From the sequence record SRR9188677_155: 42,493 bases of DNA; one strand, given 5' to 3'. Below the pieces are notes generated by a model. It made no database searches. It saw only the letters and a list, made by a program, of their open reading frames with translations, and was not told the origin of the DNA. Position numbers and translations under genes: made by a program. Shown here one piece after another: positions 22,904 through 42,492 of this stretch (position 1 is its first letter; the number at the start of each line of letters is the position of its first letter).

Positions 22904-23153
22904 GGAGACGAATATTTAAAATGGTGGAATAATAAATTGCGTAACAACCAGAGCACTATAATCTTGAAACACATTATCTTTTTATTATCATAAATTTATT
23001 AATATTTATCCAATTTTGTTAAATGATGTATCTTAAACTTATTGTACGGTCACTTGACAACTTCATATTGTACTTGAACCCCTTTTTATACCTGAGAGGT
23101 ATATCTTTTCCGATGAAGAATTTGTCAATTTGATATCTTATAATTCTATTTAT

Positions 23154-25286
23154 TCAGGGCTTAGTCGAGTCAGTTTTGCGGGCTTTTTCAGCCTGCGATA
23201 AAATGTAACTTTGCAAATCTGAAACGTCCTGGTCGCTCAGCCGCCGCCCAAAATCGGGCATTCCATTTCCTGTTAACGGCCCTTTACGCACAATTGCTGT
23301 AAAGTTTTCGTGGATACTATTTGGTGATCGTCCTAAATCCGGCAAAGCACCCCCACCACCTGCAACACCGCCGTGGCATCGCTCACAATATTGGACATAC
23401 AGGATTTTTCCATGTTTCATTTCGGCCAAGCTTCCTTTGGCAGGAAGGGTACTCAACGTGCGTTCAGGAGCTGATGCGAACGATGGCGCGGACTGGTTGG
23501 CTCCCAAGGCAAACGTGTAAACGGTGCCTGGATGAAGTGTTGGCGTGAATTTGTAACCCAGTCCAATTACGCCTCCCCAGCCAACGGCAATGGAAACATA
23601 CTGCTTGCCGTCGAGTTGATAGGTAATGGGAGGCGCTATGATGCCCGTACCGACATTTATCTGCCAAAGTACTGTTCCCGTTTTTGCATCATAGGCCCGA
23701 AAGTCGCCGGTCGCTGTGCCCTGAAAAACCAAGCCTGATGTGGTCGTCAATAGTCCGCCGTTCCAGCCAACCGGATGGTCGACACTCCATGCTTCGCGCT
23801 GCGTAACAGGATTCCAGGCAATCAGTTTACCCATTTGTTTTGGCGCTGTGGATTTGGGTTCCTGGCGCAGCGGGTGTGTGGTGTCGTAGCCAACTCCAAC
23901 ATTCCAGCCACTACCGCTACCCATACCACCAACTTTATTCATTGCCCAGTCGGGGTCATGGCCGTATATCATTGAATTGGTCTGAATAGGAATATAAACC
24001 AGCCCCTCTTTTGGATTATAAGCCATAGGCTGCCAGTTATGTCCGCCAATTGGCGAGGGGAAAAGCTCGGCGTTGTGCTTTGTATAACGGCTGAAATCAC
24101 TTTCAATCGGCCGTCCGGTTGTCGAATCAATACCTGTCGCCCAATTGACGAAAGTGTACGGCTTTCCTGATATAAACTGGCCATTTGTGCGATCAATTAC
24201 GTAAAAAAATCCGTTTTTCGGGGCTTGCATAATCACCTTGCGTAATTGGCCTTTAATGGTCAGATCCGCAAGAATCAAATGTTGGGTGGCCGTATAATCC
24301 CAGGATTCGCCCGGTGTGGTTTGATAATGCCAGACAAGCTCGCCCGAATTTGGATTAAGCGCAAGAATCGACGAGATGTACAGATTATCCCCACCTCCGG
24401 GACTGCGATGCTGACGGTTCCACGGAGAGCCATTACCCGTTCCAACGTAAAGCAGGTTTAGAGCAGGATCATAAGCCATCGCATCCCAGGCGGTTCCGCC
24501 CCCGCCATACTTCCACCACTGGCCGGTCCAGGTTTTAGCTGCCTTGGAGAGTGCTTCCGATTCGAACGGTTTCGAAGGATCACCTGGAACGGTATACGTA
24601 CGCCAGATCTGCTTGCCCGTCATGGCATCATAAGCCGACACATAGCCTCTGACACCATACTCCGCTCCACCATTGCCAATAATAACTTTGCCGGCCACAA
24701 CTCTTGGCGCGCCGGTAATGGTATAAGCCTTCGTTGTATCGACCGTTTGTACGGACCAAACAGTTTTTCCAGAACCAGCATGAAGGGCAATCAGGCGTCC
24801 ATCTAAAGTGCCGACGTAAACATTGCCCTTGTAGAGTGCAACTCCCCGGTTTACAACATCACAGCAAGCTTTCTCGGCATAATATCCGGGTACCATTGGG
24901 TCATATTGCCAGCGCAGCTTTCCAGTACGGGCATCGACTGCATAAACCCGGCTCCATGGTCCTGTAAGGTACATTACGCCGTCGGCTACAAGGGGAGTGG
25001 CTTCGATACCACGAGTAATACCCAAGTTAAGACTCCACGCCAAACCAAGTTGTTTTACATTCTCTTTCGTGATTTGGGTCAAAGTGCTATAACGGTCTTC
25101 GGCATAATTGCCACCATACGTGAGCCATTCGTTGGGTGTGTTTTTAGCTTTGATAAGCCGGGCATCGTCGATGGAGTCACCAGGTGAGCTGTCGGTAATC
25201 AGAGCCAGGCTGAATAGACAGGCAAGTAAACAGAAGGAAATTTTGGTAATAAACGGGATACGAGCAGTTGATTCACGAAGTAGCAT
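23154..25286 (-). CDS. Quinohemoprotein PQQ-dependent alcohol dehydrogenase (type II) with C-terminal cytochrome c
   Basis: Vicinal cysteines CCDVVNRG, GAEYGVRG, GTGNGSPW, WDYTATQ, QAPKNGFFY, GGHNWQPM, heme motif CERCH and MP axial ligand. Confidence 0.93.
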   Translation of the reverse strand: MLLRESTARIPFITKISFCLLACLFSLALITDSSPGDSIDDARLIKAKNTPNEWLTYGGNYAEDRYSTLTQITKENVKQLGLAWSLNLGITRGIEATPLVADGVMYLTGPWSRVYAVDARTGKLRWQYDPMVPGYYAEKACCDVVNRGVALYKGNVYVGTLDGRLIALHAGSGKTVWSVQTVDTTKAYTITGAPRVVAGKVIIGNGGAEYGVRGYVSAYDAMTGKQIWRTYTVPGDPSKPFESEALSKAAKTWTGQWWKYGGGGTAWDAMAYDPALNLLYVGTGNGSPWNRQHRSPGGGDNLYISSILALNPNSGELVWHYQTTPGESWDYTATQHLILADLTIKGQLRKVIMQAPKNGFFYVIDRTNGQFISGKPYTFVNWATGIDSTTGRPIESDFSRYTKHNAELFPSPIGGHNWQPMAYNPKEGLVYIPIQTNSMIYGHDPDWAMNKVGGMGSGSGWNVGVGYDTTHPLRQEPKSTAPKQMGKLIAWNPVTQREAWSVDHPVGWNGGLLTTTSGLVFQGTATGDFRAYDAKTGTVLWQINVGTGIIAPPITYQLDGKQYVSIAVGWGGVIGLGYKFTPTLHPGTVYTFALGANQSAPSFASAPERTLSTLPAKGSLAEMKHGKILYVQYCERCHGGVAGGGGALPDLGRSPNSIHENFTAIVRKGPLTGNGMPDFGRRLSDQDVSDLQSYILSQAEKARKTDSTKP

Positions 25287-25718
25287 TTGGTGTGTAGGTT
25301 TACTGTTATTGGATAGCTTTACTCATTCAGGTATCAGTCAGAAACCGGTTGCTTTAAAAAAGAAGTCTTAGTACAGCCGATCCTGAGACAAAGTATTCCA
25401 AAAATTCCGTTAATGGACAGAAAGAAATCGCTGGTTTCGATGCTGCTCTTAGATGTTGATTTTGAGGTAATTAAGCTACAATCTTAACAAAATACATTTT
25501 TACAAACAAACAAAGTGCTACAAATCTGTATATAAGATTTTTGGAAGGCAAAGTTGTATTAAAGCATTGCAAGCGCTCGACATGGAGGTGCGGTCAAATG
25601 TCGTCACAATTGCGAATCAAGTCGCACTTGTATCACCGTTTAATCAATTGATTCTTGCACTTCTTCTGAATTGTTTTAAATTGTAAGACCTCTTAGTCAA
25701 TGTGTTAACCTATCAATT

Positions 25719-28700
25719 ATGGCAACGTATTCATTTTTTTTGGCCTCTTCATTTGAGTTGAAGTCCGAAAGGGAAAGAATTGAACTAATTCTCTCAAAAA
25801 AAAATAAAGAACTAAGCAAGTACAATGTATTCCTGGATTTGACGGTCTGGGAAGATGAAGATGAGTCGATTGCCCCGACGAGAAAACAGAATGACTATAA
25901 TGAGAAATTAAAAGTTGCGGATGTATTGATCATTCTGTACTGGACTAAGGTTGGAAAGTACACGCTGGAGGAATTCAACTTAGCGTACGAGCTCAGTAAA
26001 TCCAACAACCGTGTACCACGTGTTTATGTCTATGAAAAAGAACTTGGAAATGAGGTTGCCGGACCGGGATTAATCGATTTTAAAAATTTAATGAACGAAA
26101 TAGAGCATTTTCCCCGGGTTTTTACATCCCTTGATTCCCTGGAAAATCTTATAAGTCAACGTATAACAACCTTAGTTACCAATGGGTTTATTAAAACTGG
26201 TGTTCCTGCAAAGCTATTGAGTCCAAACGGTGCTGCCGATCCGAACTATTTTATTGGTCGTGAAGAAGAGTTACGAAAAATTCGCGAACGTCTTAATGCG
26301 ACTGGTAAACTCATGATTATAAACGCCGAAGGGGGAATTGGGAAAACGACCCTTGCGGCGCGTTACTGGAACGAAAGCCTTTTTAATTACAAACATAATG
26401 CATGGCTTTTCTGTGAAAATGGAATTATCAATTCATTGAAGGATTTGGCACCTGGCCTAAACCTGGATTTGGAAGGACTTGATGAAAAACAACAGGTTGC
26501 GAAATTGAAAAGGGCGCTAATGGAAGTTCATGACCAGTTGCTGCTAGTGCTTGACAATGCAAACGATCCGGTTGAAATACAGGAATTCAGGCAGGAATTT
26601 GAGGGTTTTCATTGGCATGTACTCATTACAAGCCGTTGTAATGGAGTACTGGATGAGAATCAGGAGTTACCGATAACCCATCTTCCTCCGCCACTGGCAA
26701 AAGACCTGTTCGTTAAATATTATCATGAAGATACGCCTGACTTTGACCAATTGCTTGACCATTTTCTGCTGGCCATTAACTATCACACTCTTTTGGTGGA
26801 AATCTTTGCCAAAAATCTTAACGAGGCGTCTGATGTGGGCGTTACTATGTCGTCTTTTTTAGAGCAGCTGGCATTTAACGGCCTTCTGGATTTAGGCGAT
26901 ATGAACTTCGGTATACGTTCACCATGGGTCGAACGTCAAAAGATAAAAGCGGCCAACGTTGAAGATATTCTGGAATTCTTATATGATTTTTCAGAATTAA
27001 CCGAGCAGCAGCGCCTTGCTCTCGTGAACATTGCCTTGTTGCCTGCCGAAAACTACCCTTTGATATTCCTGATTAGCCTGATAGCATCCGGAGAGATCGG
27101 TTTTCGTTCTATCGTAAAGGAGTTGTACCAAAAAGGATGGCTCGGTGGCGCAGACAAAACTTATCGTATAAGCCCTGTCATACAAAATCTGGTATTAGGC
27201 AAAAATTCGGAAACACTGGCCTTTGATGCGGAACAGATGCTGGACAATCTAGCCGGCAGACTTGAAAATGACGGAAGTCAATTTATTCGAAGCCTGAACG
27301 AAATCGCGCCTTTTGCCCGGCTTGTTCCAGCCTTATCGCAAAACTTGTCTCAATTTTCTTCACCACAATTGAAAGCACTCTTGCTGAATGCGGGGTTATA
27401 CTTCGAATTAACAGGTAATATTTTAGCAGCTAAACAACTGTACGAGGAATACGGCGAACGCAGTAGTGAGGACAATGATGACGAAGCGGTAGCTACCTCG
27501 TATCAAAAATTAGGGCAGCTTTATGGAATCGAGGGTGACAGTGATTCTGCTTTTTTTTATTATCAGGAAGCATATAAGATAAATAATGAACTGCATCAGG
27601 CTTACCCTGATGAAATTTTGTATAAATTCAATCTGGCCTCTTCATTCGATCAGTTTGGTCAATTTTATCAGGATTCGGGTGATCAGAAAAATGCTTTTAA
27701 AAATTTCAGTGAATATCACAGAATAGTTAAAGAAATTTTCGATACAGATCCTCACGATGTTTATTACAAAAATAGTCTGTCCGTCACTTATGCGCGGCTC
27801 GGAAGCTTTTATATAGGCTTAGGGGATCGACAAAATGCGCTTCGTTATTATAATGATTTTCATAGGATTACTAAGGAGATATATCAGATTAATCCTAAAG
27901 ACTTTGTTTTAAAAAATAACCTTTCTATCTCGTTTTCGAATCTGGGAAGTCTGTATGAAAGCACGGGCAATAGAAAACTTGCATTGGAGCACTATCTGGA
28001 ATATCAAAGGCTCATTCAGGAAATTTATGCTGCTAACCCTGAGAATCTCGATTATAAAGATTCTCTGGCTTCATCATACGATTCACTCGGGAACTTTTAC
28101 AACGGTGCTGGCGATAGAAGGAACGCTTTAAAATACTACAACGAATTTCAAAAGATAGCAAAAGAGGTTAACCTTGCCAGTCCGAATCAGCTTTCGTTTA
28201 AGGATAGCCTTGCAACATCATTCGATAGGCTTGGCAACTTTTACGAAAGCGCGGGTGACAGGGACATGGCATTAAGCCATTATACAGAATTTCTGCGTAT
28301 AACGGAGGAAATCTATCAAATAAATCCGGGGTATATTGATTACAAAAACAATATGGCCATTTCTTTCGAACGCCTTGGTGGATTTTATGAGGGGTCGGGT
28401 GATATTGAAAACACTTTGAAATATTACAAACTTTACCAGGGGATTATCAGGGATATATATCAGATAACCCCGGAAAATCTTTTTTACAAAAACAATCTTG
28501 CTGTTTCCTTTGACCGTTTAGGAAAGGTTTATGAAGCCTTGGGGAATTGGCAGGAAGCGTTGGATATGTATACACAATACGAGAAGTTTGCAACCGAAGT
28601 TTTTCTGGCTAGTCCCGAAAATCTTGATTATAAGAACGGTCTGGGTTTTTCTTACAAGAGACTGGGAGCTATTTCAGAAGCGAAAGGTAATTGGGAAGAA

Positions 28701-29420
28701 GCACTAAATTATTATAAGGAAAGAAACCGGATTGTTATCGAAATATCGGAAGCTAGTCCTGACAATGTTGATTACAAAAATAATCTGGGCTTTTCGTATC
28801 TGGCGGTAGGCGTGATTTACCTGGCGCAGACTGATATTGATAGGGCTCTTTCCAACTTGTTGGAATCAATCAAAATCGCCATTGAGAATCACAACAACAA
28901 TCTTGAAATTCTGGAATATCAAAATGATCTGGGACTTACTTTCAAAAGACTTGCGGAAGCCTATTCGGCACTTAACGACTTTGAAAATGAATCAAGATGT
29001 AGTTCAGAATTTTTTTCACATGCAAAGGATCTGTACGGAAAAAGCCCGAATATCATTGAATACAAGAATAATTATGCTGATTCCTGCACGCAAATGGCCA
29101 AAGTCTGTTCCCGTCAAAACAAAATAGGTGAGGCGGTGACTTTGTTGTTCGAAGGGAGAAATCTGCTAACGGAGGTATTAAAGGAAACCAACGGACAAAT
29201 AATCGAATATGCCTATCAGTACGGACTGAACAGTTACGAATTGAGTCGCTTAGGAGACTCTGTCATTCATAGGAGTCAGCCCGTATCTGATGAAGCGAAT
29301 AAAAAAACGGAGATAGCAGAATTGATACGAAAAGAAGGGTTGGATTCGGTTAAGGGACTGGCTGAACAAGGGAGGCTAAAAGCAAGTCAACTTTGGTTGA
29401 TTGACGCGTTGGCAAAATAA
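25719..29420 (+). CDS. NLR-like protein: TIR/DUF4062-like effector domain, STAND (NB-ARC-like) NTPase and TPR array
   Basis: N-terminal FFLASSFELKSER...VGKYTLEEF; FIGREEEL, Walker A AEGGIGKT, Walker B LLLVLDN, LITSR; long TPR region. Confidence 0.85.
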   Translation: MATYSFFLASSFELKSERERIELILSKKNKELSKYNVFLDLTVWEDEDESIAPTRKQNDYNEKLKVADVLIILYWTKVGKYTLEEFNLAYELSKSNNRVPRVYVYEKELGNEVAGPGLIDFKNLMNEIEHFPRVFTSLDSLENLISQRITTLVTNGFIKTGVPAKLLSPNGAADPNYFIGREEELRKIRERLNATGKLMIINAEGGIGKTTLAARYWNESLFNYKHNAWLFCENGIINSLKDLAPGLNLDLEGLDEKQQVAKLKRALMEVHDQLLLVLDNANDPVEIQEFRQEFEGFHWHVLITSRCNGVLDENQELPITHLPPPLAKDLFVKYYHEDTPDFDQLLDHFLLAINYHTLLVEIFAKNLNEASDVGVTMSSFLEQLAFNGLLDLGDMNFGIRSPWVERQKIKAANVEDILEFLYDFSELTEQQRLALVNIALLPAENYPLIFLISLIASGEIGFRSIVKELYQKGWLGGADKTYRISPVIQNLVLGKNSETLAFDAEQMLDNLAGRLENDGSQFIRSLNEIAPFARLVPALSQNLSQFSSPQLKALLLNAGLYFELTGNILAAKQLYEEYGERSSEDNDDEAVATSYQKLGQLYGIEGDSDSAFFYYQEAYKINNELHQAYPDEILYKFNLASSFDQFGQFYQDSGDQKNAFKNFSEYHRIVKEIFDTDPHDVYYKNSLSVTYARLGSFYIGLGDRQNALRYYNDFHRITKEIYQINPKDFVLKNNLSISFSNLGSLYESTGNRKLALEHYLEYQRLIQEIYAANPENLDYKDSLASSYDSLGNFYNGAGDRRNALKYYNEFQKIAKEVNLASPNQLSFKDSLATSFDRLGNFYESAGDRDMALSHYTEFLRITEEIYQINPGYIDYKNNMAISFERLGGFYEGSGDIENTLKYYKLYQGIIRDIYQITPENLFYKNNLAVSFDRLGKVYEALGNWQEALDMYTQYEKFATEVFLASPENLDYKNGLGFSYKRLGAISEAKGNWEEALNYYKERNRIVIEISEASPDNVDYKNNLGFSYLAVGVIYLAQTDIDRALSNLLESIKIAIENHNNNLEILEYQNDLGLTFKRLAEAYSALNDFENESRCSSEFFSHAKDLYGKSPNIIEYKNNYADSCTQMAKVCSRQNKIGEAVTLLFEGRNLLTEVLKETNGQIIEYAYQYGLNSYELSRLGDSVIHRSQPVSDEANKKTEIAELIRKEGLDSVKGLAEQGRLKASQLWLIDALAK
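27603..29180 (+). repeat. Intragenic array of 48-aa (144-bp) TPR-like repeats, about 11 units
   Basis: Units start YPDE, DPHD, NPKD, NPEN, SPNQ, NPGY, TPEN, SPEN, SPDN, NLEI, SPNI; consensus P-x4-YKNxLAxSxxxLGxxY. Confidence 0.85.
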
Positions 29421-29461
29421 TCCTAACTCAATGATTGCACACGCAGGGTTGAATTGCGCGA

Positions 29462-29513
29462 CGTTTGTAACGCGGTTGTCAAAATTATTGACATGTAACG
29501 CGCGTTACAAACG
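29462..29513. repeat. Inverted pair of REP-like palindromes (BIME-like) between convergent genes
   Basis: CGTTTGTAACGCG (29462-29474) and CGCGTTACAAACG (29501-29513) are a perfect 13-bp inverted repeat, with an inner TGTCAA/TTGACA hairpin. Confidence 0.75.
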
Positions 29514-29535
29514 CTTCACGAGAGCAATCAACCTA

Positions 29536-30426
29536 TCAAATCGCAGCAATCACCTCCGCCGCACTCGTCCATTTAATCCCTGGATAACGATCATTATCCA
29601 ACGGTGTATTCTGAACCGAAAACATACTATGCAAATACTGACTTTGCTGCCATTTGGCGTATAATTCATTTTCGCCCTCCGGGTGTGCGGCTCTCTGCTG
29701 TTTGTTGAAAGCCGAGAAATCTGCGAGACTCCCCATCGGTTTCAGTTTGAAATCTGCGTTTTTAAGATCCTTGGCATAAGCAAGAAGTTCCGTTGCACTC
29801 AACTGAAAACTGGCAATACGAAGAATTCTGGGTGTTTCCGGATCAAGTGCCGCTGCCGCGGTGAATTCAGCAGCATTGTCTTTTGTAGTGAAATCGACCT
29901 GCCAGTCAGGATCGTCACCCCAATAAGCAATGGTTTGCTCCTTCAAATTATAAAAAGGCGTATTGTACCTCAGAATATCTGCAAAAGCGCCAATCATAAC
30001 AGATGTCCCATTTATTGCAGCTTTATCCAAATGGGTATGAAACTCTTTTCGAAGGTCAAAATTGCGGTTTTCTCCTTCTGATAATTTAGTGAAATCGGAA
30101 GCGTAATCAGAAGGAATGAATCTTGGAACACCCGCTCTAACTGCTGCTTCCAGTAATAGCACCTGGGTATCAACGATAACGTCCCTGAGTCCCGCCAAGG
30201 TCGATACGACGCAGGATGCGCCCATGCAAGCCTGTGTAAGTTCATCGTCATCTGAAAAATCAACTTTGATTATAGTAGCACCTAAGTCAGCTATCCTGGA
30301 GATTTTTGCATTGTCGCTGTCGGCACGAACTAAGGCGTGAACGTCTGCGCCTTTGCGGATCAGGGATGCGATAATTCTTCCGCCAAGGTCACCTGTGGCA
30401 CCAGCTACTAAAATGAAATTACTCAT
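29536..30426 (-). CDS. NmrA-family / isoflavone-reductase-like NAD(P)-binding protein
   Basis: ILVAGATGDLG, AAVRAGVPRFIPSDY; ATG at 30426 preferred. Confidence 0.9.
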   Translation of the reverse strand: MSNFILVAGATGDLGGRIIASLIRKGADVHALVRADSDNAKISRIADLGATIIKVDFSDDDELTQACMGASCVVSTLAGLRDVIVDTQVLLLEAAVRAGVPRFIPSDYASDFTKLSEGENRNFDLRKEFHTHLDKAAINGTSVMIGAFADILRYNTPFYNLKEQTIAYWGDDPDWQVDFTTKDNAAEFTAAAALDPETPRILRIASFQLSATELLAYAKDLKNADFKLKPMGSLADFSAFNKQQRAAHPEGENELYAKWQQSQYLHSMFSVQNTPLDNDRYPGIKWTSAAEVIAAI

Positions 30427-30596
30427 GTGGTTTTTTGTTTGTTTAAATTCGGCAGCACTTTTGGTAAGCAGAGCAACGTAATAGGTGAGTGACGACAATG
30501 TTCGTATATGGTTGCCTCAATTTCGTGCCAAAGCTATTTTGAGACCGCTGACCGCACTTTGAAATCGGGGCAGGCAAGCTCTTTCATTAACACACT

Positions 30597-32531
30597 TCAA
30601 TACCTCCCACCAATAACCCTATCATTCAGATCCGCATATTTTCCTGCCAGCTTTGGCAACCGTTTTGGTGTATTGGCAGAAGAAGTAGTGTCAGTTAAAG
30701 CTTTCAAAAAGGAAACCAGGTCTTGCTTTTCCAAAACAGTCAGGTTCAGATGATCGGGTAAAATAGTCCATATGACTTTCTCTTTTAAAAATTCGTTGCC
30801 GCCGCCATGATTGTAGAAATCGACAACCTGTTCAAGCGTTTGATATATTCCGTTATGCATATACGGAGCTGTTAAGGCGACATTTCTGATCGTAGGTGTC
30901 TTGAAGGAAAATTTGAATAATGGATTTTGAGTAGAATGTTCTTCGCCAATATCCGGATCAACTTTGTAAGTGCTCATGGTGTCGCGTATCGGAACACCCA
31001 AACTTCGATGGTCATTAGTGCTATAATATGGAGGCAAAGTTCCGTTAAATAAGGGCGCATAGTGACAGCTTCCACATCTGCCTTTCCCCATAAAAATGTT
31101 AAATCCATTGATTTCATTTTTGGTCAACGCCGACTTGTTTCCCCGAACGTATTGATCAAATGGAGAATTGAGTCCTACCAAGGTTCTCTCATAAGTAGCG
31201 ATGGCAGATTTAATCTGTTTTCGTCCAATTCCATTTTTAACCGTTTCCGGAAAAGCCTTTTGAAATAACTTCACGTATTCGTCGCTCGCCCTTATTCGCA
31301 TGGTCACATTCTCGAAAGAGCTATGCAGTTCCTCGGAATTCATCACAACCGAATCGGCCTGGTCTTCAAGCGAGTTCACTCGTGAGTCCCAAAACTGAGC
31401 CTTTTGATAAACAGAATTAATCACAGTAGGGGAGTTACGGGGAAGCTGTTTCATTGTAAAACTCATGCTTTTTTGGAAACCGTCGGTAAAAGCTTTTTCT
31501 GGTTTATGGCACGATGCGCAAGCTCTTTGATTATTGTCGGACAGGATCGGATCAAAAAACAACAACTTTCCCAATTCGACCCGTTTGGCTGTTAAAGCAT
31601 TGGTCTTTTCGGGAGCAAAATAATCACCATTAAACGCATTCAAATCAAATAGATTATCTGATTCCGGGTTCATCGCTGCAAAATTATCGACAAGTGGGAT
31701 ATTTAAAGTCTTCCGCAATTGTGTTAAATCAACCGAAAGCGGATTCAGGAATTCGGTGATAAATGCCATTCTGTCGAAACTGTTGAAGTCTTGATTGTTA
31801 GCCATAAATTGTTCAGCTCCGGCCAGCTTTTGTAGTATCTCTGGTTTTAAAGCAGAATTATCCGGAAGCTGGTCGACATACAACCTAACTATTTGTGACC
31901 AACTTTCGATCTCCGCTTTTACACATAGCAGGTTAACCGGATTCAATTGAAAGTCACCATTGCCAATACCAACGCTTGTTATGCGAAACATTTGAAGTCG
32001 AAGTGCATCCATAACGCGTTCGTCTGTTAGTTTTTCGAGATCATTTGCGTAGTCTGTTGCATTAATGGACTCCCTAAACGCCTCGGAAGCCCGTTTAATA
32101 AACATGACTCCAAATTCAATTGCTTTTTTATTTTCTTTTGCCAAAACCGAATCCGCTTCAATACCAAAAGGCCCTGCGATCAGAAAATTGTCGGGAATTG
32201 GCGGTCCGGCTTTTTGTGGAGTTAATTGAATGGGTTGCCATATCAGCTTATACGCCGCCTCCTGATGGAAATAGATAAAGAAGAGCTCCACACGTTTGAG
32301 TTGTTGTGCTAGTTGGTTGTACTTTTCTAAACGCAAAACATAACTGCTATCCATAAAATAAGTTGGATATACAGCAAGCAAGGAATCAAGCTTTTGCATT
32401 TCGGAGAGGTAAATCTGTCCGGCCAAATTGGCGGTTTTCGTTCTTTCTAAAGGTTGTTCCTGTCTGAGAACTGCCGCGCAAAACAGGGCTACAATGGTTG
32501 TAACAAAAATCAAGACGTATATCTTTTTCAT
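30597..32531 (-). CDS. Di-heme cytochrome c peroxidase / MauG-family protein with long N-terminal extension
   Basis: LGKLLFFDPILS, CASCH, RNSPT, FWDSR, CGSCH, FKTPTIRNVALTAPYMHNG. Confidence 0.92.
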   Translation of the reverse strand: MKKIYVLIFVTTIVALFCAAVLRQEQPLERTKTANLAGQIYLSEMQKLDSLLAVYPTYFMDSSYVLRLEKYNQLAQQLKRVELFFIYFHQEAAYKLIWQPIQLTPQKAGPPIPDNFLIAGPFGIEADSVLAKENKKAIEFGVMFIKRASEAFRESINATDYANDLEKLTDERVMDALRLQMFRITSVGIGNGDFQLNPVNLLCVKAEIESWSQIVRLYVDQLPDNSALKPEILQKLAGAEQFMANNQDFNSFDRMAFITEFLNPLSVDLTQLRKTLNIPLVDNFAAMNPESDNLFDLNAFNGDYFAPEKTNALTAKRVELGKLLFFDPILSDNNQRACASCHKPEKAFTDGFQKSMSFTMKQLPRNSPTVINSVYQKAQFWDSRVNSLEDQADSVVMNSEELHSSFENVTMRIRASDEYVKLFQKAFPETVKNGIGRKQIKSAIATYERTLVGLNSPFDQYVRGNKSALTKNEINGFNIFMGKGRCGSCHYAPLFNGTLPPYYSTNDHRSLGVPIRDTMSTYKVDPDIGEEHSTQNPLFKFSFKTPTIRNVALTAPYMHNGIYQTLEQVVDFYNHGGGNEFLKEKVIWTILPDHLNLTVLEKQDLVSFLKALTDTTSSANTPKRLPKLAGKYADLNDRVIGGRY

Positions 32532-34116: not shown

Positions 34117-36984
34117 TCAATCCCTAACCCCATAACGCTCCTTCGTCTCATCTGAAAGCGGCATTAAAAACCTGTCCCCAAAAAGCCGGATCCATTCCTT
34201 TATTTCTTCATAAGTGTAATCCATTTTTTCACCAGCCACAAACTTGAAAAAACGCCCCTTTTTATACGGATCGGCCTTGAATACCTCGGTTCCGGCAGTA
34301 ATATAAAGCGTAGTGTCTCCAACCAGTTTTATGTCAATGGGATTGTGACTTAAGTGAAGTTGAAGCAACGGTTTTCCAGATGGCAATTCAAAACTTTCAA
34401 TGCGGTACTTTGTTTGTACCACCAAAATTCTTCCGTCCTGCGAAAAAGTAGCGGAGCGGATTTTCTTATCCTTCAGAAAGTCGACACTTTTTCCAGCAAT
34501 CAAGTCCCATATTTCTACCGTGCTATCGCGATTAGTAGTGACCAGCCATTTGCTGTCGTAAGAAAACTCGGCCCTTCGGATCATTTTTTCATTCTTCAAA
34601 AAGTCATGAAATTGTCCCAGAGGCGGTTCCCATACCTTCGTTGTGGAATTATAACTATTATCATCGATGGTAACCATCCATTTGCTGTCCAGTGAAAACG
34701 ACACATCACTAATATTCTTTTCATTACCTAAAAAACGCTGTAGCTTGCCTGATTCCAAGTCACAAAACTGCGTCGTGCCATCGCTATATTGTACCAAGAT
34801 CCATCTGCTGTCGCTAGAAAAGGTGGCGTTGTTGTACCTATTACTGGTTTTTAAGAAGGCCGGTTTCTCGCCGGTGGAGATTTTTACTAAAACGGCCTTA
34901 CTGAAACCATTTCTGGCAATGAACCATTGGCCATCATCCGAAAATTTTACATCGAACAACTGTGATTGATCCTTTAGGAAATCTGGTTCCTTACCACTGA
35001 CAAGCTCCAGTACTTTTGATTCGGTTCGTCCATCGGTAAGGACGACGTATCGATTATCTGGTGAAAAAGCGACCCGATATACAGGTGTTTCCAAGGAATC
35101 ATGCAACATCCCGGTGTCCAATTCCCATATTTTTGCCTTGTTATTCGCATTCAATGTGACAATCCATTTGCTGTCTGGAGAGAAGTCAACTTGCCTGATC
35201 CCAGGCTCATTCTTTAGAAAATCTTTGACTGTTCCTGATGTTGTACTCCATACTTTCGTAGTGATGCTATCATTGGTGATGATCCAGTTGCTGTTAGGGG
35301 AAATCGTTGCGAAACGGATGTATTTCTCTTTTTTTAAGAAATTTGGCGTGTTTCCTGACAACGTTTCAGACACTTTGGACTCTTTAAAGTCATTTGTGGT
35401 TGTTATGATCCATTTCCCATCTCTGGAGATTCTGGTAAATTTTAGGGGCTGTTTATGTCTTACCAAAGCCGGTACTTCTTCGGAAGTCAACTTCCACTTT
35501 TTTAAGCTATTGTTCTTATGCTCTGTAATAAGGTATTGACTATCTGTTGTAAAAGAAACTTCGGAAAGCTTGATTTCATCTCTCAAAAAATCTTGTTCTC
35601 TACCGGAAGAGACCTCCCAGACCTTGTTGGTTTTATCTGTAGCTTTAGTGAGAATCCATTTGCTGTCGGGTGAGAAAGTGGCTTTTGCAATCCCTCTTTC
35701 ATCACTCATGATATCCATGATTTTGCAAGAAACAACATCCCACAACTTGGCTGTGTGGTTGGCGTGCCGGGTAAGAACCCATTTGCTGTCGTGCGAGAAA
35801 ACTGCCTCAGTTGTTTGACTCGTGTCTTTCAGAACACAACGAATCTTATCGGACGTCAGGTCCCAAACTTTCGTATCCTCCGCCCATGACAACACCCATT
35901 TGCCATCGTCCGAAAAATAAGCCTGAACTAAGTCTTTTTCATCTTTGAGGAAATCGTGGGCGGTTCCGGAAGGAAGTTCCCAAATTTTAAGCTGATAATT
36001 TTGACTTAACGTCATCAGCCATCGGTCATCAGCAGAAAATTCACCCGCCATCACCTGTTTTTCGTCCCTGAGAATATCATGGATTTTGCCGGACTCTGTG
36101 TCCACAACACTCGCGCTACCGTTGGAAAATATGGTCATTACCCAACTTCCGCTTGGGGAAAAGCTGGCATTAAGAATCGGTTTTTCCTTACTAAAATAAT
36201 CAGGAATTTTGCCGAGCGCTAAGTTCCATAAAGATATCGACTCGATTTCGTGGTTAATAACAATCCACTTGCTGTCTGAAGAAAAGATTAGCCGCTCCAT
36301 CGAATTTTTTTTTGGCAAATCCTGAGAGTTTTTTGTGGCAAGGTTCCAAACCTTTGCCTTATCCCATTGGTCGATAATTAGCCATTTGCTATCATTTGAA
36401 AAAACTGCTTGAAAGACACCTTTCTCATTATCTAAAAAATTGAGCGCCAGGCCCGAATCTGCGTCCTGAATTCCGACGGTTTTGTCAGCATTAATTGTGA
36501 CTATCCATCGGCCGTTTGGTGAGATGGCGTCACCTGGATTAAATTGAAACCTCGTTTTTTCATGAAACTGATGAACACCGCTTCCGTTAAATATCTTCTT
36601 TGTTTGCTGTCTAACAAAGCTAAGCGCCCTTTCTTCTTTCGTTTTTTCGGCTGCTTTTTCCAGCAATCGAAGTCCCTCGCCGGGAGTTAGTTTATCCGCC
36701 TCAGATGCCCAATATAAAGCAGTTGCGGCACTTTGTTGTATTACTGCTTCCTTTTTCTCATTTTCAATTCTGTCGAACAGATTGTTAATGAGTTTATCAA
36801 CTTCCTGGCTTTTCTCAGGTGCGCAAAGTTTTGCTGCGTTGTATTTGTTCAGCGCCTTGCGATAGTCTTTTGCCTGCCTGAAATCATTACCCTGCTTGAT
36901 GAGACCCGGATATTGTGGACAATTTTGGGCAATGATATTGCTTTGAAAAACAAGGAAAACGATGATGGTTAGTATGTTTCTCAT
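34117..36984 (-). CDS. Secreted protein with an N-terminal TPR-like helix pair and about 18-19 WD40-like repeats
   Basis: Signal peptide MRNILTIIVFLVFQSNIIA-Q; AKDYRKALNKYNAA; ~41-aa repeats with FS-x-D-S/G-KW and K-V/I-W-D/E. Its start overlaps the upstream stop (ATGA). Confidence 0.88.
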   Translation of the reverse strand: MRNILTIIVFLVFQSNIIAQNCPQYPGLIKQGNDFRQAKDYRKALNKYNAAKLCAPEKSQEVDKLINNLFDRIENEKKEAVIQQSAATALYWASEADKLTPGEGLRLLEKAAEKTKEERALSFVRQQTKKIFNGSGVHQFHEKTRFQFNPGDAISPNGRWIVTINADKTVGIQDADSGLALNFLDNEKGVFQAVFSNDSKWLIIDQWDKAKVWNLATKNSQDLPKKNSMERLIFSSDSKWIVINHEIESISLWNLALGKIPDYFSKEKPILNASFSPSGSWVMTIFSNGSASVVDTESGKIHDILRDEKQVMAGEFSADDRWLMTLSQNYQLKIWELPSGTAHDFLKDEKDLVQAYFSDDGKWVLSWAEDTKVWDLTSDKIRCVLKDTSQTTEAVFSHDSKWVLTRHANHTAKLWDVVSCKIMDIMSDERGIAKATFSPDSKWILTKATDKTNKVWEVSSGREQDFLRDEIKLSEVSFTTDSQYLITEHKNNSLKKWKLTSEEVPALVRHKQPLKFTRISRDGKWIITTTNDFKESKVSETLSGNTPNFLKKEKYIRFATISPNSNWIITNDSITTKVWSTTSGTVKDFLKNEPGIRQVDFSPDSKWIVTLNANNKAKIWELDTGMLHDSLETPVYRVAFSPDNRYVVLTDGRTESKVLELVSGKEPDFLKDQSQLFDVKFSDDGQWFIARNGFSKAVLVKISTGEKPAFLKTSNRYNNATFSSDSRWILVQYSDGTTQFCDLESGKLQRFLGNEKNISDVSFSLDSKWMVTIDDNSYNSTTKVWEPPLGQFHDFLKNEKMIRRAEFSYDSKWLVTTNRDSTVEIWDLIAGKSVDFLKDKKIRSATFSQDGRILVVQTKYRIESFELPSGKPLLQLHLSHNPIDIKLVGDTTLYITAGTEVFKADPYKKGRFFKFVAGEKMDYTYEEIKEWIRLFGDRFLMPLSDETKERYGVRD

Positions 36985-38780
36985 TTGGCCTTCCTTTTAA
37001 GTTCATCCTCACACTGCTCTATCTTTTCATCTATTTCCTCAGCGGACAAATAGGCATCGTTTCCGACTTCTGATAATCCGCCTTTATAATCTTTGAAATT
37101 TAATTGCAAACGGTGTTTTGCTTTTACTAAATTGTCCAACGCCAATTGATATTCCTGGTATTCCATATAATTTCTGGCAATTCCATAGAAACGTTTTGCT
37201 TCCGCTGCATTGGTTTGTTCAAAAAACAGCTCGGCAGTCTTAAGACTTGTAAGAGAATTTTTATAAGATATATCTGCCTTTACGCGAGACTGGTCTGCCT
37301 CTTCGCGCTGTTGCCTGGCTGAGAGCATGAAGTGCAGGGATGCTGAGCCCATACCCAGGGATACCAGAGCTAATGCATAGGCTATTCGGCTTTTTCCTCG
37401 AACCTTTACATTAAGACTTTCCAATTCCGTGACACGTTCTCGTTCAGCCTCAACTTGTCTCTGAAGTTCTATTTGATGTCTTTCCTGTTTTGCGAGAGCG
37501 GCATGCGTTTCAATCTCTTTTTCTTTTGCTCTACGAACTCTTGCCACTTTCTGGATCGGTTCTACCAATGTATCGTGGCTTACTTCATAGAGCAATCTTC
37601 CGGCCGCATCGCGTTCCTTTCGCAATAATGAGCTTTCTTCCAAGACTTTAAGCAGGGACGGACTCACGTCGAATTCTTCTTCAATATAGGCATCAGAAAG
37701 AGAGTTGCGCCTTTCGTTGGTAATCAGTTTTTCCTCGATCATTTTCTGTGCCTTCTCCCGATTTTCGTCGGAAAGTTTGGCCAGAACGCCCTCATAATAA
37801 TTTTGAAAAATATTGGTGATATCGCTCAGATCTTCAACCGTTATTATTGTCTTCTTTCCTTCGCCAACGAGTGTATCCTCCACATAACGACACACGATCT
37901 GGAGCATCGATGTCTCTATGGTACCATCCTGTTTGTTGGCAATTCCATCTATGATTTTATCAACCGCTTTTTCGGAATAAGTAAATGGGGATGTATAGTA
38001 TAACCCTTCCAGTTGAGAAGGTTTGGAAATGGCTTGTATTGCCTGAAACTGTGTTAATGGAGCCAGTTCATAACAATTCTGTAATATTCCGGGATGCCGG
38101 TTAGTCAGGTTGTTTACCTGCGACAAGCGATCGGAGCGAATGGAAAACACGATTTTTACCTCTGGCATTTCGTACAAAAACGCATGGAAATCGTCGTCTA
38201 TCTTTCCTGCTCCATCCAATTCCCCCAGTTTTTTTCGGTATTTTACAGGAACTGCACTGTACAGTATTTCCGCCAATTGTTCTGAAAAAGCGTCGACAGC
38301 ATCCTTCGGATAAGTGAATAACTCCTCAAACTGGTCGAAGATTAATATGAATGGTTTGCGAGGATAATGCCTTTGTAAAGTTTTAACCCAATGCCAGAAC
38401 GAGTCTTCACCATTTGTCAGGATATTCAATGGTGACTGACTTACTTGCTCTTCACTCAGGATATTCCTTAATCTCTGATTCACCGTTTCGGCCGGATTTA
38501 CACCCTGATCTTCCGTTTTGGAGTAATTATTAAACCGTATAGAAAAATCCTGATAAGGTGTTTCGGCTTTGAGTTTTGGTAAAATCCCGGCATTCAAAAG
38601 CGAACTTTTTCCGTATCCACTCTTACCATAAAGCGTAACTACCTGCTTCACAAATATGAGGCTAAACAGATCAGCTATGTCCCTTTCACGACCGAAAAAC
38701 AGATCCTGTTCGTCAGCCGTAAATGGCTTTACTCCCGGGTAACGGTTTCGCAATACGTTATCTGAAACATCGCTTTCCAT
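36981..38780 (-). CDS. nSTAND1-type P-loop NTPase with coiled coil, one TM helix and a C-terminal TPR-like segment
   Basis: RYPGVKPF, FFGRERD, Walker A GKSGYGKS, Walker B ILIFDQFEELF, SIRSD, YEVSHDTL; TM IAYALALVSLGMGSASLHFML. Confidence 0.88.
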   Translation of the reverse strand: MESDVSDNVLRNRYPGVKPFTADEQDLFFGRERDIADLFSLIFVKQVVTLYGKSGYGKSSLLNAGILPKLKAETPYQDFSIRFNNYSKTEDQGVNPAETVNQRLRNILSEEQVSQSPLNILTNGEDSFWHWVKTLQRHYPRKPFILIFDQFEELFTYPKDAVDAFSEQLAEILYSAVPVKYRKKLGELDGAGKIDDDFHAFLYEMPEVKIVFSIRSDRLSQVNNLTNRHPGILQNCYELAPLTQFQAIQAISKPSQLEGLYYTSPFTYSEKAVDKIIDGIANKQDGTIETSMLQIVCRYVEDTLVGEGKKTIITVEDLSDITNIFQNYYEGVLAKLSDENREKAQKMIEEKLITNERRNSLSDAYIEEEFDVSPSLLKVLEESSLLRKERDAAGRLLYEVSHDTLVEPIQKVARVRRAKEKEIETHAALAKQERHQIELQRQVEAERERVTELESLNVKVRGKSRIAYALALVSLGMGSASLHFMLSARQQREEADQSRVKADISYKNSLTSLKTAELFFEQTNAAEAKRFYGIARNYMEYQEYQLALDNLVKAKHRLQLNFKDYKGGLSEVGNDAYLSAEEIDEKIEQCEDELKRKAK

Positions 38781-38791
38781 ATCGGCTTCGC

Positions 38792-40216
38792 TTAAATGTT
38801 CGCTATCAGTGTTTGAATCCCTTTATCAAAAGTTGAAACGCCGTTTCCAACCGGGTTTCCAACCGGGTTTCCAACCGGGTTCGAAACCGGTATACTCTTG
38901 ATGCTTCTTAACCACGCAATCAGATCGGGAATACCACGGCCGAAATCCAGCCAAAGGGTTTTTTCGTCAGTCAAATCCTGAAGATCGTCCAGCGGATACT
39001 TTTCTTCCCTTTCTGCGATGAGCTGACGGATATTACTGAGCTTGTTTGCTACAAAAGCTTTGATGTTATCTCCCAGGCTTTGATCCATGAAAGCATCATC
39101 CAAGTGGCACGGAATCAGTTTCACTCCGGCTTCCCTTGTAATCGAAATTTCTTTGCTTACCCAGGGAGATTCCAGGCTGTCCTTCGATATCACCACCACC
39201 ACCGCATCCATCTGCTTAATCCGACTCATGAAATTCCGGATTTTTTCACCGGCTGGCATCGATACATCATCAATGATTACGTCGAAATCTGCGGCTTCCA
39301 GTCCGTCCCGGATTTTAGCAACCATCGCCTCGTCCTTGTGCCGGTAGGAGATGAAAATCTTCTTTTTTTGCGATGCACGGAGTCTTCCTTCGCTTTTACA
39401 CTTTGAATACAGCTCATTCAGAAAATCGATGGGCTGAATGGTGTAGAAATCCATCTCCAGACGGCGGGCGATGAACGTGCTCATTTTGTCACTTTGCTCG
39501 GCTGGTAACAGGGAGTATTTCAGAAGCTTTTCGTTATTACCATTTCTGGGAACAAACAGGCGGAGCAGCATTTGCAAATACCACTTTTCGAAATGAACAC
39601 CCAGAAATAGAAAACTTTTGGCACGTTTCAGCGCTTCTTCTACTTCCCGGGGAATCGGCCGTAACGCCAGAATTCCCTGCAGGTAGGAAAAAAGATGATC
39701 AAAAGTAAGCACCGCATCCGGCGGGTCGATAGATCCTAAAATGTTATAAATGAGCGGGATATCTCTGGACGGCTTTTCAGTTGGAAGGGGTGCGTCGGTT
39801 CGGGGATAATAGCTGAAATTGTGCCGGATCTTTTGTTTGTCGAAACTCTTCGTCAGCCGCTGATCGGGCAACAAGGAGATAATGAGATGAAAAGGCAGCA
39901 ATGCGATTTTATCAAAAGGCTCGTCAAATTCGGTCCGGCTGGCATAAAACCTTTCCAAAAAGAGATACAATGCCGTTTCCCGTCCTCCGATTTTAAGCTG
40001 CAAAAGTTCTTCGTGATCGAAGAAAAACTGTGTATCTACCTCGACATGCTTTTGAATGTTGGTGTCGTTTCGCAATTCATCACAAAGAATCTGAAAAAGA
40101 GTCTGATTGTTTTTGTACTCGATCAGATCAGGACCTAAAACCAGAATGCACTGCTGCTGGCGTATCTCATACAGAATCTGATCCCATTCTATATTGTTCT
40201 TCCAGTCGTTATCCAT
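38792..40216 (-). CDS. SIR2-like (SIR2_2, degenerate) domain fused to a TIR domain
   Basis: CILVLGP, LIISLLPD, LIYNILGS, SFLFLGVHFEKWYL; TIR KIFISYRHKD...VVVISKDSLESPWVSKE. Confidence 0.85.
   Translation of the reverse strand: MDNDWKNNIEWDQILYEIRQQQCILVLGPDLIEYKNNQTLFQILCDELRNDTNIQKHVEVDTQFFFDHEELLQLKIGGRETALYLFLERFYASRTEFDEPFDKIALLPFHLIISLLPDQRLTKSFDKQKIRHNFSYYPRTDAPLPTEKPSRDIPLIYNILGSIDPPDAVLTFDHLFSYLQGILALRPIPREVEEALKRAKSFLFLGVHFEKWYLQMLLRLFVPRNGNNEKLLKYSLLPAEQSDKMSTFIARRLEMDFYTIQPIDFLNELYSKCKSEGRLRASQKKKIFISYRHKDEAMVAKIRDGLEAADFDVIIDDVSMPAGEKIRNFMSRIKQMDAVVVVISKDSLESPWVSKEISITREAGVKLIPCHLDDAFMDQSLGDNIKAFVANKLSNIRQLIAEREEKYPLDDLQDLTDEKTLWLDFGRGIPDLIAWLRSIKSIPVSNPVGNPVGNPVGNGVSTFDKGIQTLIANI
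38843..38890. repeat. In-frame 12-bp tandem repeat
   Basis: GTTTCCAACCGG x3 plus a degenerate GTTCGAAACCGG; encodes PVSN-PVGN-PVGN-PVGN. Confidence 0.95.
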
Positions 40217-40369
40217 TGCAAGGTTTCATAAGCGTTAAGTGGTTGAATTTAAGATTTTTCTGAAACATTTCAGAAATTTAATACCTGGTATTTATTAAAT
40301 GGTCGGGCGATTGCAAGGCGTCCTTCCTGAGGTTTCTGGTCACCTTGTAAGCACTTTAACCCAGCCAAC

Positions 40370-42112
40370 TCATGGCTGATCCTTAACCTTGTTAAGCGAA
40401 TCCATTGTTTTTTTCGTCTCTACCAATCTCAATGAATCGTTAATTACGTAATGTGGACGCGAATTCGATCTTGCTATCTTAATCATGGCTTTGAGAATGT
40501 CGTATTTCAACGACTGGAAAGCCAGGGCAACCTTTGGGTCGTTTGGATAGCCCTTACTAAGTTTATCCAAACTTTCCACCAGGTCTGAATTGTAATTCCT
40601 TACAAGGTCAATTCTTTCCAGATTTCGCTGACTTTCTAATTTATCCTTCTGTTTTTCTTTTTTGAATTTAATGTAGTCTCGCCCAACTAGAATGAACAGA
40701 ATCGACAGTACGCCAAAACATCCCCATATGATCCGACTCGTACGCTTCAGCCTGAAATTCAGGTTTTCAAACTTTGTCGCCGTCTGACGTTCCGTCTCTA
40801 TCTGCCTTTGAAGTTCTTCCTGATAGCGTTCCTGTTCAGCCATCGCAGCAAGCGCTTCCGTTTCTTTTTCTTTGGTAATACGTATAGCCGCAACTTTCTG
40901 AATCGGCTCAATCAGCGTATCATGGCTTACCTCGTAGAGCAATCGCCCGGCGGCATCACGTTCCTTCCGCAGTAGTGAGCTTTCTTCCAGGGTTTTTAGC
41001 AATGACTGGCTTACATTAAATTCTTCTTCAATAAAGGCGTCGGAGAGCGAATTGCGGCGATCGTTGGTAATGAGCTTTTCCTCAATCAATTTCTGCGCTT
41101 TTTGTCGATCTGCGTCAGGAAGTCTTGTCAAAACGGCTTCATAATATCTTTGAAAGATATTGGTGATATCGCTAAAATCCTCAGCAGTTATTTCGGTCTT
41201 CCCAAATTCGTTCACCAGCCTGTCTTCAACATACCGGCATACGATTTGAAGCATCGCCGTTTCTATGGTTCCATCCAGTTTGTTGGCAATACCATCGATG
41301 ATTTTAGAGACTGCCGTAGGCGAATAAATGAAAGGTTTTGTAACGTAATTGCCTTCCAATTGCGAAGGATTGGTAATAGCTTCCCTAGCCTGCGGCTGAT
41401 TCAAGGGCGCCAGTTCGTAGCAGTTTTGCAAGATTCCCGGGTGGTGGTAAGTCAGGTTATTCACCTGCGACAACCGGTCCGACCTTATGGAAAAGACAAT
41501 CTTAACCTCCGGCATTTCGTACAGAACTTCGTGAAAGTCGTCTTCTATTAGTCCTTCGGCATCCAGCTCTGCTAATTTTCTACGATACTTAACTGGAACC
41601 GGGCTGTAAAGTATTTCCGCCAGTTGTTCTGAAAAGGCTTCTATTTCTATCTTGGGATAGGTAAAGAGCTCTTCGAACTGGTCAAAAAACAGAATGAATG
41701 GCCTGTCTGGATAATGTTTTTGCAAAGTTTTGATCCAATGCCAAAACGAATCAGTACCATCTGTTAACAGATTTATGGGGGAATTCAATATTTGCTCCTC
41801 TGTCAGGCTGTTCCTAAGCCGCTGATTTACTGTGTCGGTGGGAATTACGCCCTGATCTTCTGCTTTAAGGTAGTTGTTGAACCGGATAGAGAAATCCAGG
41901 TAAGGCGTTTCTGCTTTAAGTTTGGGTAAAATGCCAGCGTTTAATAGTGAACTTTTGCCATAACCGCTTTTGCCATACAATGTTACAACTTGCTTAACAA
42001 AAATGAGGCTGAACAAATCAGCGATGTCTTTCTCGCGGCCAAAAAACAGGTTTTGCTCCTCAACCGTAAAGGGTTTTACGCCGGGATACCGGTTTCGCAA
42101 AGCTGCAATCAT
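40370..42112 (-). CDS. nSTAND1-type P-loop NTPase paralogue with coiled coil, one TM helix and a different C-terminus
   Basis: Same motifs as 36981..38780 (GKSGYGKS, FFDQFEELF, YEVSHDTL); TM IIWGCFGVLSILFILVG. Confidence 0.88.
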   Translation of the reverse strand: MIAALRNRYPGVKPFTVEEQNLFFGREKDIADLFSLIFVKQVVTLYGKSGYGKSSLLNAGILPKLKAETPYLDFSIRFNNYLKAEDQGVIPTDTVNQRLRNSLTEEQILNSPINLLTDGTDSFWHWIKTLQKHYPDRPFILFFDQFEELFTYPKIEIEAFSEQLAEILYSPVPVKYRRKLAELDAEGLIEDDFHEVLYEMPEVKIVFSIRSDRLSQVNNLTYHHPGILQNCYELAPLNQPQAREAITNPSQLEGNYVTKPFIYSPTAVSKIIDGIANKLDGTIETAMLQIVCRYVEDRLVNEFGKTEITAEDFSDITNIFQRYYEAVLTRLPDADRQKAQKLIEEKLITNDRRNSLSDAFIEEEFNVSQSLLKTLEESSLLRKERDAAGRLLYEVSHDTLIEPIQKVAAIRITKEKETEALAAMAEQERYQEELQRQIETERQTATKFENLNFRLKRTSRIIWGCFGVLSILFILVGRDYIKFKKEKQKDKLESQRNLERIDLVRNYNSDLVESLDKLSKGYPNDPKVALAFQSLKYDILKAMIKIARSNSRPHYVINDSLRLVETKKTMDSLNKVKDQP

Positions 42113-42401: not shown

Positions 42402-42492
42402 GGCGAAAAAGCGGGGTGTGCGCGGGCTCAAGCGTGGAAGCTTTTTTTCGCCTTGAATTTTTTGTTACTTTTTGTTTCAAGACAAAAAGTAA
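42402..42492. repeat. Structured intergenic element with two stem-loops at the window edge
   Basis: GGCGAAAAAGC...GCTTTTTTTCGCC (42402-42452) and a perfect 11-bp stem TTACTTTTTGT-TTCAAG-ACAAAAAGTAA (42465-42492). Confidence 0.6.

Follow-up and report, generated by a model that had tools for sequence, protein, structure and literature searches.

The window, a stretch of 42,493 nucleotides (nt) from sequence record SRR9188677_155, carries on its minus strand four genes arranged head to tail: gene B, the SIR2-TIR gene, gene A and the WD40 gene (Table 1). A and B encode paralogous nucleoside triphosphatases (NTPases) of the nSTAND1 clade, and the SIR2-TIR gene between them is the sole effector-type gene at the locus. 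We consider it fairly probable that B is a lineage-specific, NTPase-only extra receptor or modulator that stands beside a canonical module and probably signals through the same SIR2-TIR protein. This reading is carried by the age of the A/B duplication and the constraint on B, by the rarity of such a pair among related loci, and by the tail of B, an orphan sequence whose reading frame has been kept open.

Duplication and constraint of the NTPase core

The gathering cut-off of the Pfam family PF20703 (nSTAND1) is 27.1 bits, and both A and B score far above it. In an alignment of 33 family sequences, A and B among them, 48 columns are invariant, including the G-K-S of the P-loop and the D-Q-F-E-E of Walker B, and B retains 48/48. 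AlphaFold2 (AF2) models of A and B each show a confident NTPase and one long helix that runs into a hydrophobic segment; for B the mean predicted local distance difference test (pLDDT) value was 83.1, with the NTPase part above 90. When the model of A was used in a structure search, Cdc6/Orc1, CED-4, Apaf-1, MalT and plant resistosome chains were matched at E values of 5e-8 to 1e-5, with low TM-scores (0.22-0.32). None of the PADLOC families, which cover Avs, bNACHT, TIR-NLR and other known defence systems, matched A, and B matched only mad3 (E 0.007) without a significant stretch. No NCBIfam model matched either protein.

We found that A and B are identical at 361 of 480 residues (75%) by BLASTP and that identity rises to 78% in the core (A residues 10-465). 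The first 85 aligned residues contain 78 identities (92%), exactly the number that an earlier note on this DNA had counted by hand. The same note had stated that most third codon positions differ around Walker A, and this held on recount: in the stretch at 38580-38642 in A and 41927-41989 in B, 21/21 residues are identical while 16/21 third positions are different. Over A residues 10-465 the third-position identity with B is 0.48, the proportion of nonsynonymous differences (pN) is 0.131 and the nonsynonymous distance (dN) is 0.144. At four-fold degenerate sites 86/129 differ. The Nei-Gojobori proportion of synonymous differences (pS) exceeded 0.75, a known artefact at two-fold sites, and we relied on the codon and four-fold counts instead. 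Identical residues other than methionine and tryptophan use the same codon in 164 of 351 cases, compared with 131 expected from codon usage (z 3.9), which indicates that synonymous sites are nearly, though not fully, saturated.

The 92% identity of the first 85 residues could be taken as a sign of recent duplication or ongoing gene conversion between A and B. We regard this as extremely improbable, and it is refuted by the nucleotide data. Within those 85 residues the same codon is used for 33 of the 78 identical residues when 28.5 are expected (z 1.1), blastn identity is 73.6% over 1313 nt (B 40788-42100 against A 37441-38753), and the longest identical run is 17 nt. We found instead that identity between A and B tracks conservation across the whole nSTAND1 family, with a Spearman coefficient of 0.88 over 8 windows. 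Sites at which A and B agree have a mean family conservation of 0.77, compared with 0.54 for sites at which they differ (p 1e-14), and the N-terminus is the best conserved part of the whole family. The high N-terminal identity is thus not specific to the pair.

When B was used as the query in a metagenome scan, the sole return was an A-type orthologue on a contig of 2592 bp (L081). This contig contains the end of a SIR2-TIR gene, the A-type orthologue itself, identical to protein P0005 of our collection, and the start of a WD40 gene. The orthologue is 88% identical to A over residues 10-465. Four-fold sites differ at 49% between A and the orthologue, at 67% between A and B and at 65% between B and the orthologue, which indicates that B branched off before the organisms carrying A and L081 split. 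The A/B duplication is by this measure old. In a tree of 63 family sequences A, B and P0005 form one clade with 100% support. The ratio of nonsynonymous to synonymous distance (dN/dS) is about 0.09 both for A and B (0.144 over a Jukes-Cantor distance of 1.68) and for A and the orthologue (0.070 over 0.80). The earlier note had proposed an old duplication under strong purifying selection, and a ratio that is not near 1, together with near-saturated synonymous sites, agrees with that proposal.

A faster evolution of B was considered and rejected. In the three-way comparison the single deviating residue belongs to B at 62 sites, to A at 18 and to the orthologue at 14, and the branch of B in the tree is longer (0.25 against 0.097). 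When the 61 B-only sites of the 63-sequence alignment were polarised with the 60 other sequences, 36 changes fell on B and 21 on the stem of A and the orthologue, to which A adds 18, so that the changes are balanced. Similarly, over the 217 columns with a conservation of at least 80%, departures number 32 for A, 38 for B and 32 for the orthologue. Judged from these sequence comparisons, the NTPase core of B appears to be a working, constrained gene under purifying selection as strong as that on A and on true orthologues.

The canonical module and the rarity of the pair

Genome contigs were scanned with a profile, which detected 578 relatives; the 80 best loci were then scanned for open reading frames (ORFs) and with hidden Markov models. 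One nSTAND1 ORF is present in 78/80 of these loci. The other two are L074, where a single nSTAND1 gene is split in two, and L033 (2547-12515), where two nSTAND1 modules adjoin. The first module of L033 has a distant nSTAND1 protein with its own WD40 gene, and the second has a TIR-SIR2 protein with reversed domain order, an nSTAND1 protein and a partner with an Lcl_C domain. In 75/80 loci the gene immediately upstream of the NTPase gene is SIR2-like. Among the five others, an ORF that was called too long masks the SIR2-like gene of L040, L050 and L072 start at a contig edge, and L060 and L063 have none upstream. The widespread Bacteroidota module is a SIR2-like gene, then one gene for an nSTAND1 protein with a transmembrane (TM) segment, then often a WD40 protein with a signal peptide.

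A conforms to this order, since it starts 11 nt after the SIR2-TIR stop codon and its own stop overlaps the start of the WD40 gene. B does not conform, being preceded by 381 nt of non-coding DNA, and it is separated from SIR2-TIR by 153 nt, in contrast to the tight packing of A. This spacer contains a perfect palindrome of 9+9 nt with a 2-nt spacer (40257-40276), about 40 nt before the SIR2-TIR start, which could be an operator or promoter element. We found no terminator-like site in the 153-nt spacer. In a scan for sigma-70 promoters and terminators, sites did not exceed those of shuffled sequences, and the promoter model may not fit Bacteroidota.

A B-like copy upstream of the SIR2-like gene was present in 0/59 loci, these being the loci among the 75 with at least 2 kb of upstream sequence. 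Several assemblies contain two copies of the whole module, which lie apart from each other and have a SIR2-like gene each (L016/L052, L013/L050 and L038/L075). This suggests that the family usually multiplies as whole modules and that an NTPase-only copy is unusual. A full-text literature search, which did not cover supplements, returned no description of such an A/B pairing of a membrane nSTAND1 protein with a SIR2-like/TIR protein.

The earlier note had likened A and B to the sensor/helper pairs of plant nucleotide-binding leucine-rich repeat receptors (NLRs), and had held that homologous loci which always carry a single NTPase would speak against its view. Single-NTPase loci are essentially what we found, the exceptions being the split gene of L074 and the separate module of L033, and conservation of the pairing among relatives, as expected of a sensor/helper pair, was absent from the loci scanned. 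The strongest form of the comparison is an obligate pair, in which A and B would form a hetero-oligomer and both would be needed to activate SIR2-TIR. The two genes flank one effector gene, and both NTPase domains are intact and constrained with only the tails differing, as such a pair would have it. Against this, nearly all relatives manage with one nSTAND1 ORF and none of the informative loci has a second copy upstream. In addition, a Pfam scan of both copies revealed neither an effector nor an identifiable integrated domain by which either could be recognised as helper or sensor, and the identity profile described above needs no pair-specific constraint. We therefore consider an obligate pair improbable.

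Hydrophobic segments, tails and partner proteins

Behind the NTPase and coiled coil, 77/82 family ORFs have a hydrophobic segment, and the other 5 are truncated. A TM-like segment is present in all 5 forms that are fused to a WD40 domain, which suggests that the propeller would lie across the membrane. The helix of B is clear, with a Kyte-Doolittle value of about 2.0 over 19 residues, while the segment of A is marginal (about 1.48). In the AF2 model of B the hydrophobic part lies in one continuous helix (residues 398-480). The net charge flanking the helix is +3 on both sides in B, and +2 and 0 in A.

The homology between A and B stops where the hydrophobic helix begins. Beyond this point 14/120 aligned residues match and phmmer found no similarity between the two tails. 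The earlier note had described the parts after the TM helix as unrelated, and we agree. C-termini vary widely among homologues, with ORFs of 534-1850 residues that carry WD40, LRR, FGE-sulfatase and other Pfam domains. The comparison of C-termini that the same note had suggested thus points to free swapping. We grew a profile from the tail of A, which matched 104/124 tails of closer relatives, A included. Among more distant genome loci it matched 13/53 short ORFs and 0/22 long ORFs. The tail of B gave no match to this profile (E 6.9). A has both features of the module, a subfamily tail and a signal-peptide partner directly downstream, whereas B has neither and is followed by the SIR2-TIR gene.

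The tail of A is modelled as helices at residues 484-540, 544-559 and 580-598 with pLDDT up to 88. The model of the B tail has three helices with pLDDT of 40-69, as expected for a sequence without homologues. Relatives of the B tail were sought in six frames of its own region and of 81 loci, and none were found. A word-indexed search of 5.8 billion proteins with B residues 470-580 gave nothing at E<=0.01, an exhaustive HMMER pass over 1.84 billion representative proteins gave 0 matches at E<=0.001, and the ESM Atlas gave no usable match. One phmmer match of the B tail, to P0050, was spurious; it was out of register and fell onto the coiled coil and TM segment of that protein. A frameshift origin of the tail was also rejected, as the tail profile was empty in six frames of 40150-40850 and a control on A gave 2.4e-23.

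We then asked what the reading frame itself indicates. The B tail has 101 open codons, which mononucleotide shuffles manage in 3/10,000 cases (P=0.0003), and the other two frames of the region contain 8 and 10 stops. Its codon score is -3.90 in frame compared with -4.46 and -4.55 off frame, which makes it as gene-like as the tail of A. These values indicate that the tail of B is real coding sequence.

These data bear on the idea that B was left over from a second module or was acquired horizontally, and that it is now independent of its neighbours or on the way to being lost. Whole modules are indeed doubled in some assemblies, the two modules of L033 adjoin, and a B-type orthologue was not found. 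However, a tblastn search found no SIR2-TIR or WD40 remnant beside B, including the 381 nt upstream, and the canonical tail is absent from the other frames. The constraint on B equals that on A and its tail frame has been kept open. Furthermore, it is hard to see how an NTPase that lacks both an output domain and a partner would function by itself. We judge an independent or decaying B to be quite unlikely.

B could alternatively be a negative regulator or decoy, which would join oligomers of A or bind SIR2-TIR unproductively and so raise the threshold of activation. B keeps the NTPase and coiled coil and is without the family tail and partner gene; its own upstream non-coding region and the 153-nt spacer make separate expression possible; and there is precedent for pairs of paralogues of which one promotes and the other opposes death (PMC8195603). 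However, Walker A, Walker B and all invariant columns are retained in B, which a pure decoy would not need. We consider this explanation unlikely.

The WD40 protein of the locus has a hydrophobic N-terminus, and a profile of the N-terminal module matches it at 1.9e-27. A hydrophobic N-terminus is present on the ORF downstream of the NTPase gene in 33 of the 44 loci that have such an ORF. Separate propeller proteins have a hydrophobic N-terminus followed by a conserved TPR-like module, and the profile of this module matches 25 ORFs directly downstream of nSTAND1 genes as well as the tails of 7 short nSTAND1 proteins. A complex prediction with residues 489-599 of the A tail and 21-140 of the WD40 protein scored 0.12 against a mark of 0.34; run without controls, it gives no verdict.

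Cysteine is found in the last 30 residues of 63/118 short A-type tails, and there is none in the B tail. Many secreted partners, in the region 36925-36984 on the minus strand and at other loci, have a Cys-Pro pair and a TPR-like hairpin after the signal-peptide-like start. A periplasmic disulfide link between A-type tails and secreted partners is conceivable from these sequence features.

The SIR2-TIR protein, signalling and known systems

In the SIR2-TIR protein Pfam detects TIR_2 at 70 bits (residues 287-379) and SIR2_2 at 32.6 bits (residues 121-244). PADLOC models match the TIR part only, and a PDB sequence search returned only weak Rossmann and TIR matches. A TIR domain follows the SIR2-like domain in 12/75 upstream partners. 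In SIR2-only partners the C-terminus is different: all 8 that were scanned (L014, L016, L017, L024, L044, L052, L066 and L010) carry Pfam EAD11 there. Our own profile of the EAD11 region matched 61 partner ORFs and 8 other ORFs of the loci; the latter are in L066 (14832-16034 and 16039-16965), L076, L010, L059, L031, L061 and L073. The 8 further ORFs hint at effectors that would be recruited in trans. The same profile found no EAD11-type domain in the window. At the C-terminus of SIR2-TIR (38843-38881, minus strand) we observed a four-residue tandem repeat of three copies plus a variant, which the L081 orthologue, otherwise nearly identical, lacks.

Among the upstream partners, the SIR2-like part is what stays constant. 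The same conserved motifs are present in 12 TIR-bearing and 60 SIR2-only partners (72 aligned), and we take these motifs to be unlike the canonical glycine-rich, asparagine and histidine motifs of sirtuins. The SIR2-like domain may serve as an adaptor and not as an enzyme.

B has no output domain, effector or partner gene of its own, and its core is 78% identical to that of A. In the simplest model B would share the SIR2-TIR protein with A. B, which lies directly upstream of the canonical module, arose by an old duplication of the NTPase core, and its membrane and tail part was replaced by orphan sequence from the hydrophobic helix onward. In the mechanism we favour, a signal beyond the membrane would be received by the tail or by the WD40 partner and drive nucleotide-dependent oligomerisation of the NTPase. 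The TIR NADase would be activated, leading to NAD+ depletion and growth arrest. B would act through the same SIR2-TIR protein, either alone or in mixed oligomers with A. The shared output, which the earlier note had also suggested, is plausible. Its other suggestion, that of two extracytoplasmic inputs, is unproven: A has the subfamily tail and a secreted partner, and B has an orphan tail, no partner and an ambiguous topology.

Several points weigh against our reading of B. The hydrophobic segment of A is only marginal. The equal charge of +3 on both flanks of the B helix leaves its orientation ambiguous, which makes an exported B tail doubtful. The non-canonical SIR2 motifs in the 72 partners make SIR2 doubtful as the effector, and the TIR domain is the likelier enzyme. 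The window ends 381 nt upstream of B, and an effector gene could lie farther off. We found no B-type orthologue in protein collections, with the result that purifying selection on the B tail is not measurable, and the L081 contig is too short to reveal whether a B-like gene was retained. Finally, the view of the module as an immune system is drawn from domain content and the literature.

A more specific version would make A and B alternative membrane-anchored receptors on one TIR effector, in which A reads the WD40 partner and B reads another cue or sets the threshold in mixed oligomers, by means of a lineage-invented or replaced tail. We hold this version to be rather unlikely.

STAND/NLR-type immune receptors are normally regarded as cytoplasmic sensors with a fused sensor domain. 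In the family described here the NTPase is followed by a hydrophobic helix and in many cases by a WD40 propeller or secreted partner, an arrangement that suggests transmembrane sensing. The locus is also a natural experiment, in that a duplicated NTPase core has long been under full constraint while the membrane and tail part was exchanged for a sequence without relatives. If B does signal through the neighbouring TIR protein, it would show that a second input can be gained without duplicating the output, and A and B would be a small and tractable pair for the study of hetero-oligomerisation of STAND NTPases. If A and B were two alternative receptors, they would form a bacterial equivalent of NLR receptor networks that spans the membrane, with a new receptor born by tail replacement. 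If B is inert, the locus contains nothing more unusual than a lineage-specific duplicate.

Paired plant NLRs such as RGA4/RGA5 and RRS1/RPS4 are adjacent paralogous STAND receptors for which a split of sensing and signalling has been proposed; they are conserved as pairs and one member has an integrated decoy. Neither conserved pairing nor an integrated decoy was seen for A and B.

The SIR2-TIR protein resembles Thoeris in having TIR and SIR2-like domains together, and its TIR part matches ThsB-type models. However, the NCBIfam model ThcB4 scores 44.9 bits against a cut-off of 220. Furthermore, unlike Thoeris, both domains here are on one chain, the system would be NTPase-driven and there is no SLOG domain. 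The locus is not a member of Thoeris; the similarity is confined to the TIR part and scores are far below cut-offs.

The nSTAND1 clade was defined by Kaur, Burroughs, Iyer and Aravind (eLife 2021, PMC8195603); what follows refers to passages of that paper and of PMC10907252. The counter-invader systems of PMC8195603 belong to the same NTPase clade as A and B, given the PF20703 scores well above cut-off. They likewise have a central STAND NTPase, a variable sensor end and NAD+-targeting effectors that are fused or separate and coupled by adaptors. They differ in that effectors or EADs are fused at the N-terminus and that the sensors are cytoplasmic repeats. The NTPase described here lacks an N-terminal domain, has a hydrophobic helix after it and lies between genes for SIR2-like/TIR and secreted WD40 proteins. 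The module may be listed in that paper. A two-gene nSTAND2 system (PMC8195603, Figure 6C) also has two adjacent genes that each encode a STAND NTPase of one clade. That clade is a different one, and the pair defines that system while single-NTPase loci are the rule here.

At the loci of diversity-generating retroelement (DGR) clade 5D (PNAS 2024, PMC10907252) two nSTAND1/NACHT targets are common and lie next to one effector that shares an adaptor domain. Two paralogous STAND sensors with one nearby effector are thus found in both cases, and one pair of clade 5D is predicted to face different compartments. In clade 5D the proteins end in C-type-lectin/FGE domains that are diversified by the retroelement and are coupled via EAD8. 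In contrast, the pairing here is a single case with no retroelement and an orphan B tail. Two STAND paralogues around one effector are a known theme, and what is new is the setting of membrane-anchored nSTAND1 proteins with a SIR2-like/TIR protein, the single-case pairing and the orphan tail.

Table 1. Coordinates of the genes and gene parts at the locus, as positions in the window
Feature	Position	Strand	Basis
Gene B, nSTAND1 NTPase paralogue, 580 aa	40370-42112	-	ORF; PF20703 119.8 bits
SIR2-like + TIR protein (SIR2-TIR), 474 aa	38792-40216	-	ORF; Pfam TIR_2, SIR2_2
Gene A, nSTAND1 NTPase, 599 aa, canonical slot	36981-38780	-	ORF; PF20703 129.4 bits
WD40 beta-propeller protein, 955 aa, signal-peptide-like N-terminus and TPR-like N-terminal module	34117-36984	-	ORF; Pfam WD40 and propeller families
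B residues 5-458: NTPase, winged-helix and coiled-coil part homologous to A	40739-42100	-	BLASTP, blastn
B residues 459-479: hydrophobic helix, strong TM candidate	40676-40738	-	Kyte-Doolittle up to 1.98
B residues 480-580: orphan tail	40373-40675	-	Homology searches empty
A residues 466-488: hydrophobic segment rich in small residues, marginal TM candidate	37317-37385	-	Kyte-Doolittle 1.48
A residues 489-599: helical tail typical of closer subfamily	36984-37316	-	Tail profile; AF2 model
Spacer between B and SIR2-TIR, 153 nt	40217-40369	-	Sequence
Upstream of B, 381 nt to window end, without ORF of at least 80 aa	42113-42493	-	ORF list with open ends

Rfam and tRNA scans gave no match in the window. 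The non-coding end of the window (42402-42492) contains inverted repeats, one perfect over 11 nt (42465-42475/42482-42492) and one of 9 nt (42402-42410/42444-42452). The region 18677-32531 encodes a PQQ dehydrogenase with cytochrome c, a glucose/sorbosone dehydrogenase, a di-haem cytochrome c peroxidase, an NmrA-like protein and a methyltransferase. These neighbours appear to be ordinary metabolic genes, and the module is thus not in an obvious defence island. About 8 kb away an unrelated STAND-type gene (25719-29420, plus strand) encodes a protein of 1233 aa whose first 180 residues are unassigned, that scores 123 bits with the NCBIfam model FxSxx_TPR, below the cut-off of 300, and that has an NB-ARC domain (residues 182-316) and many TPR repeats.

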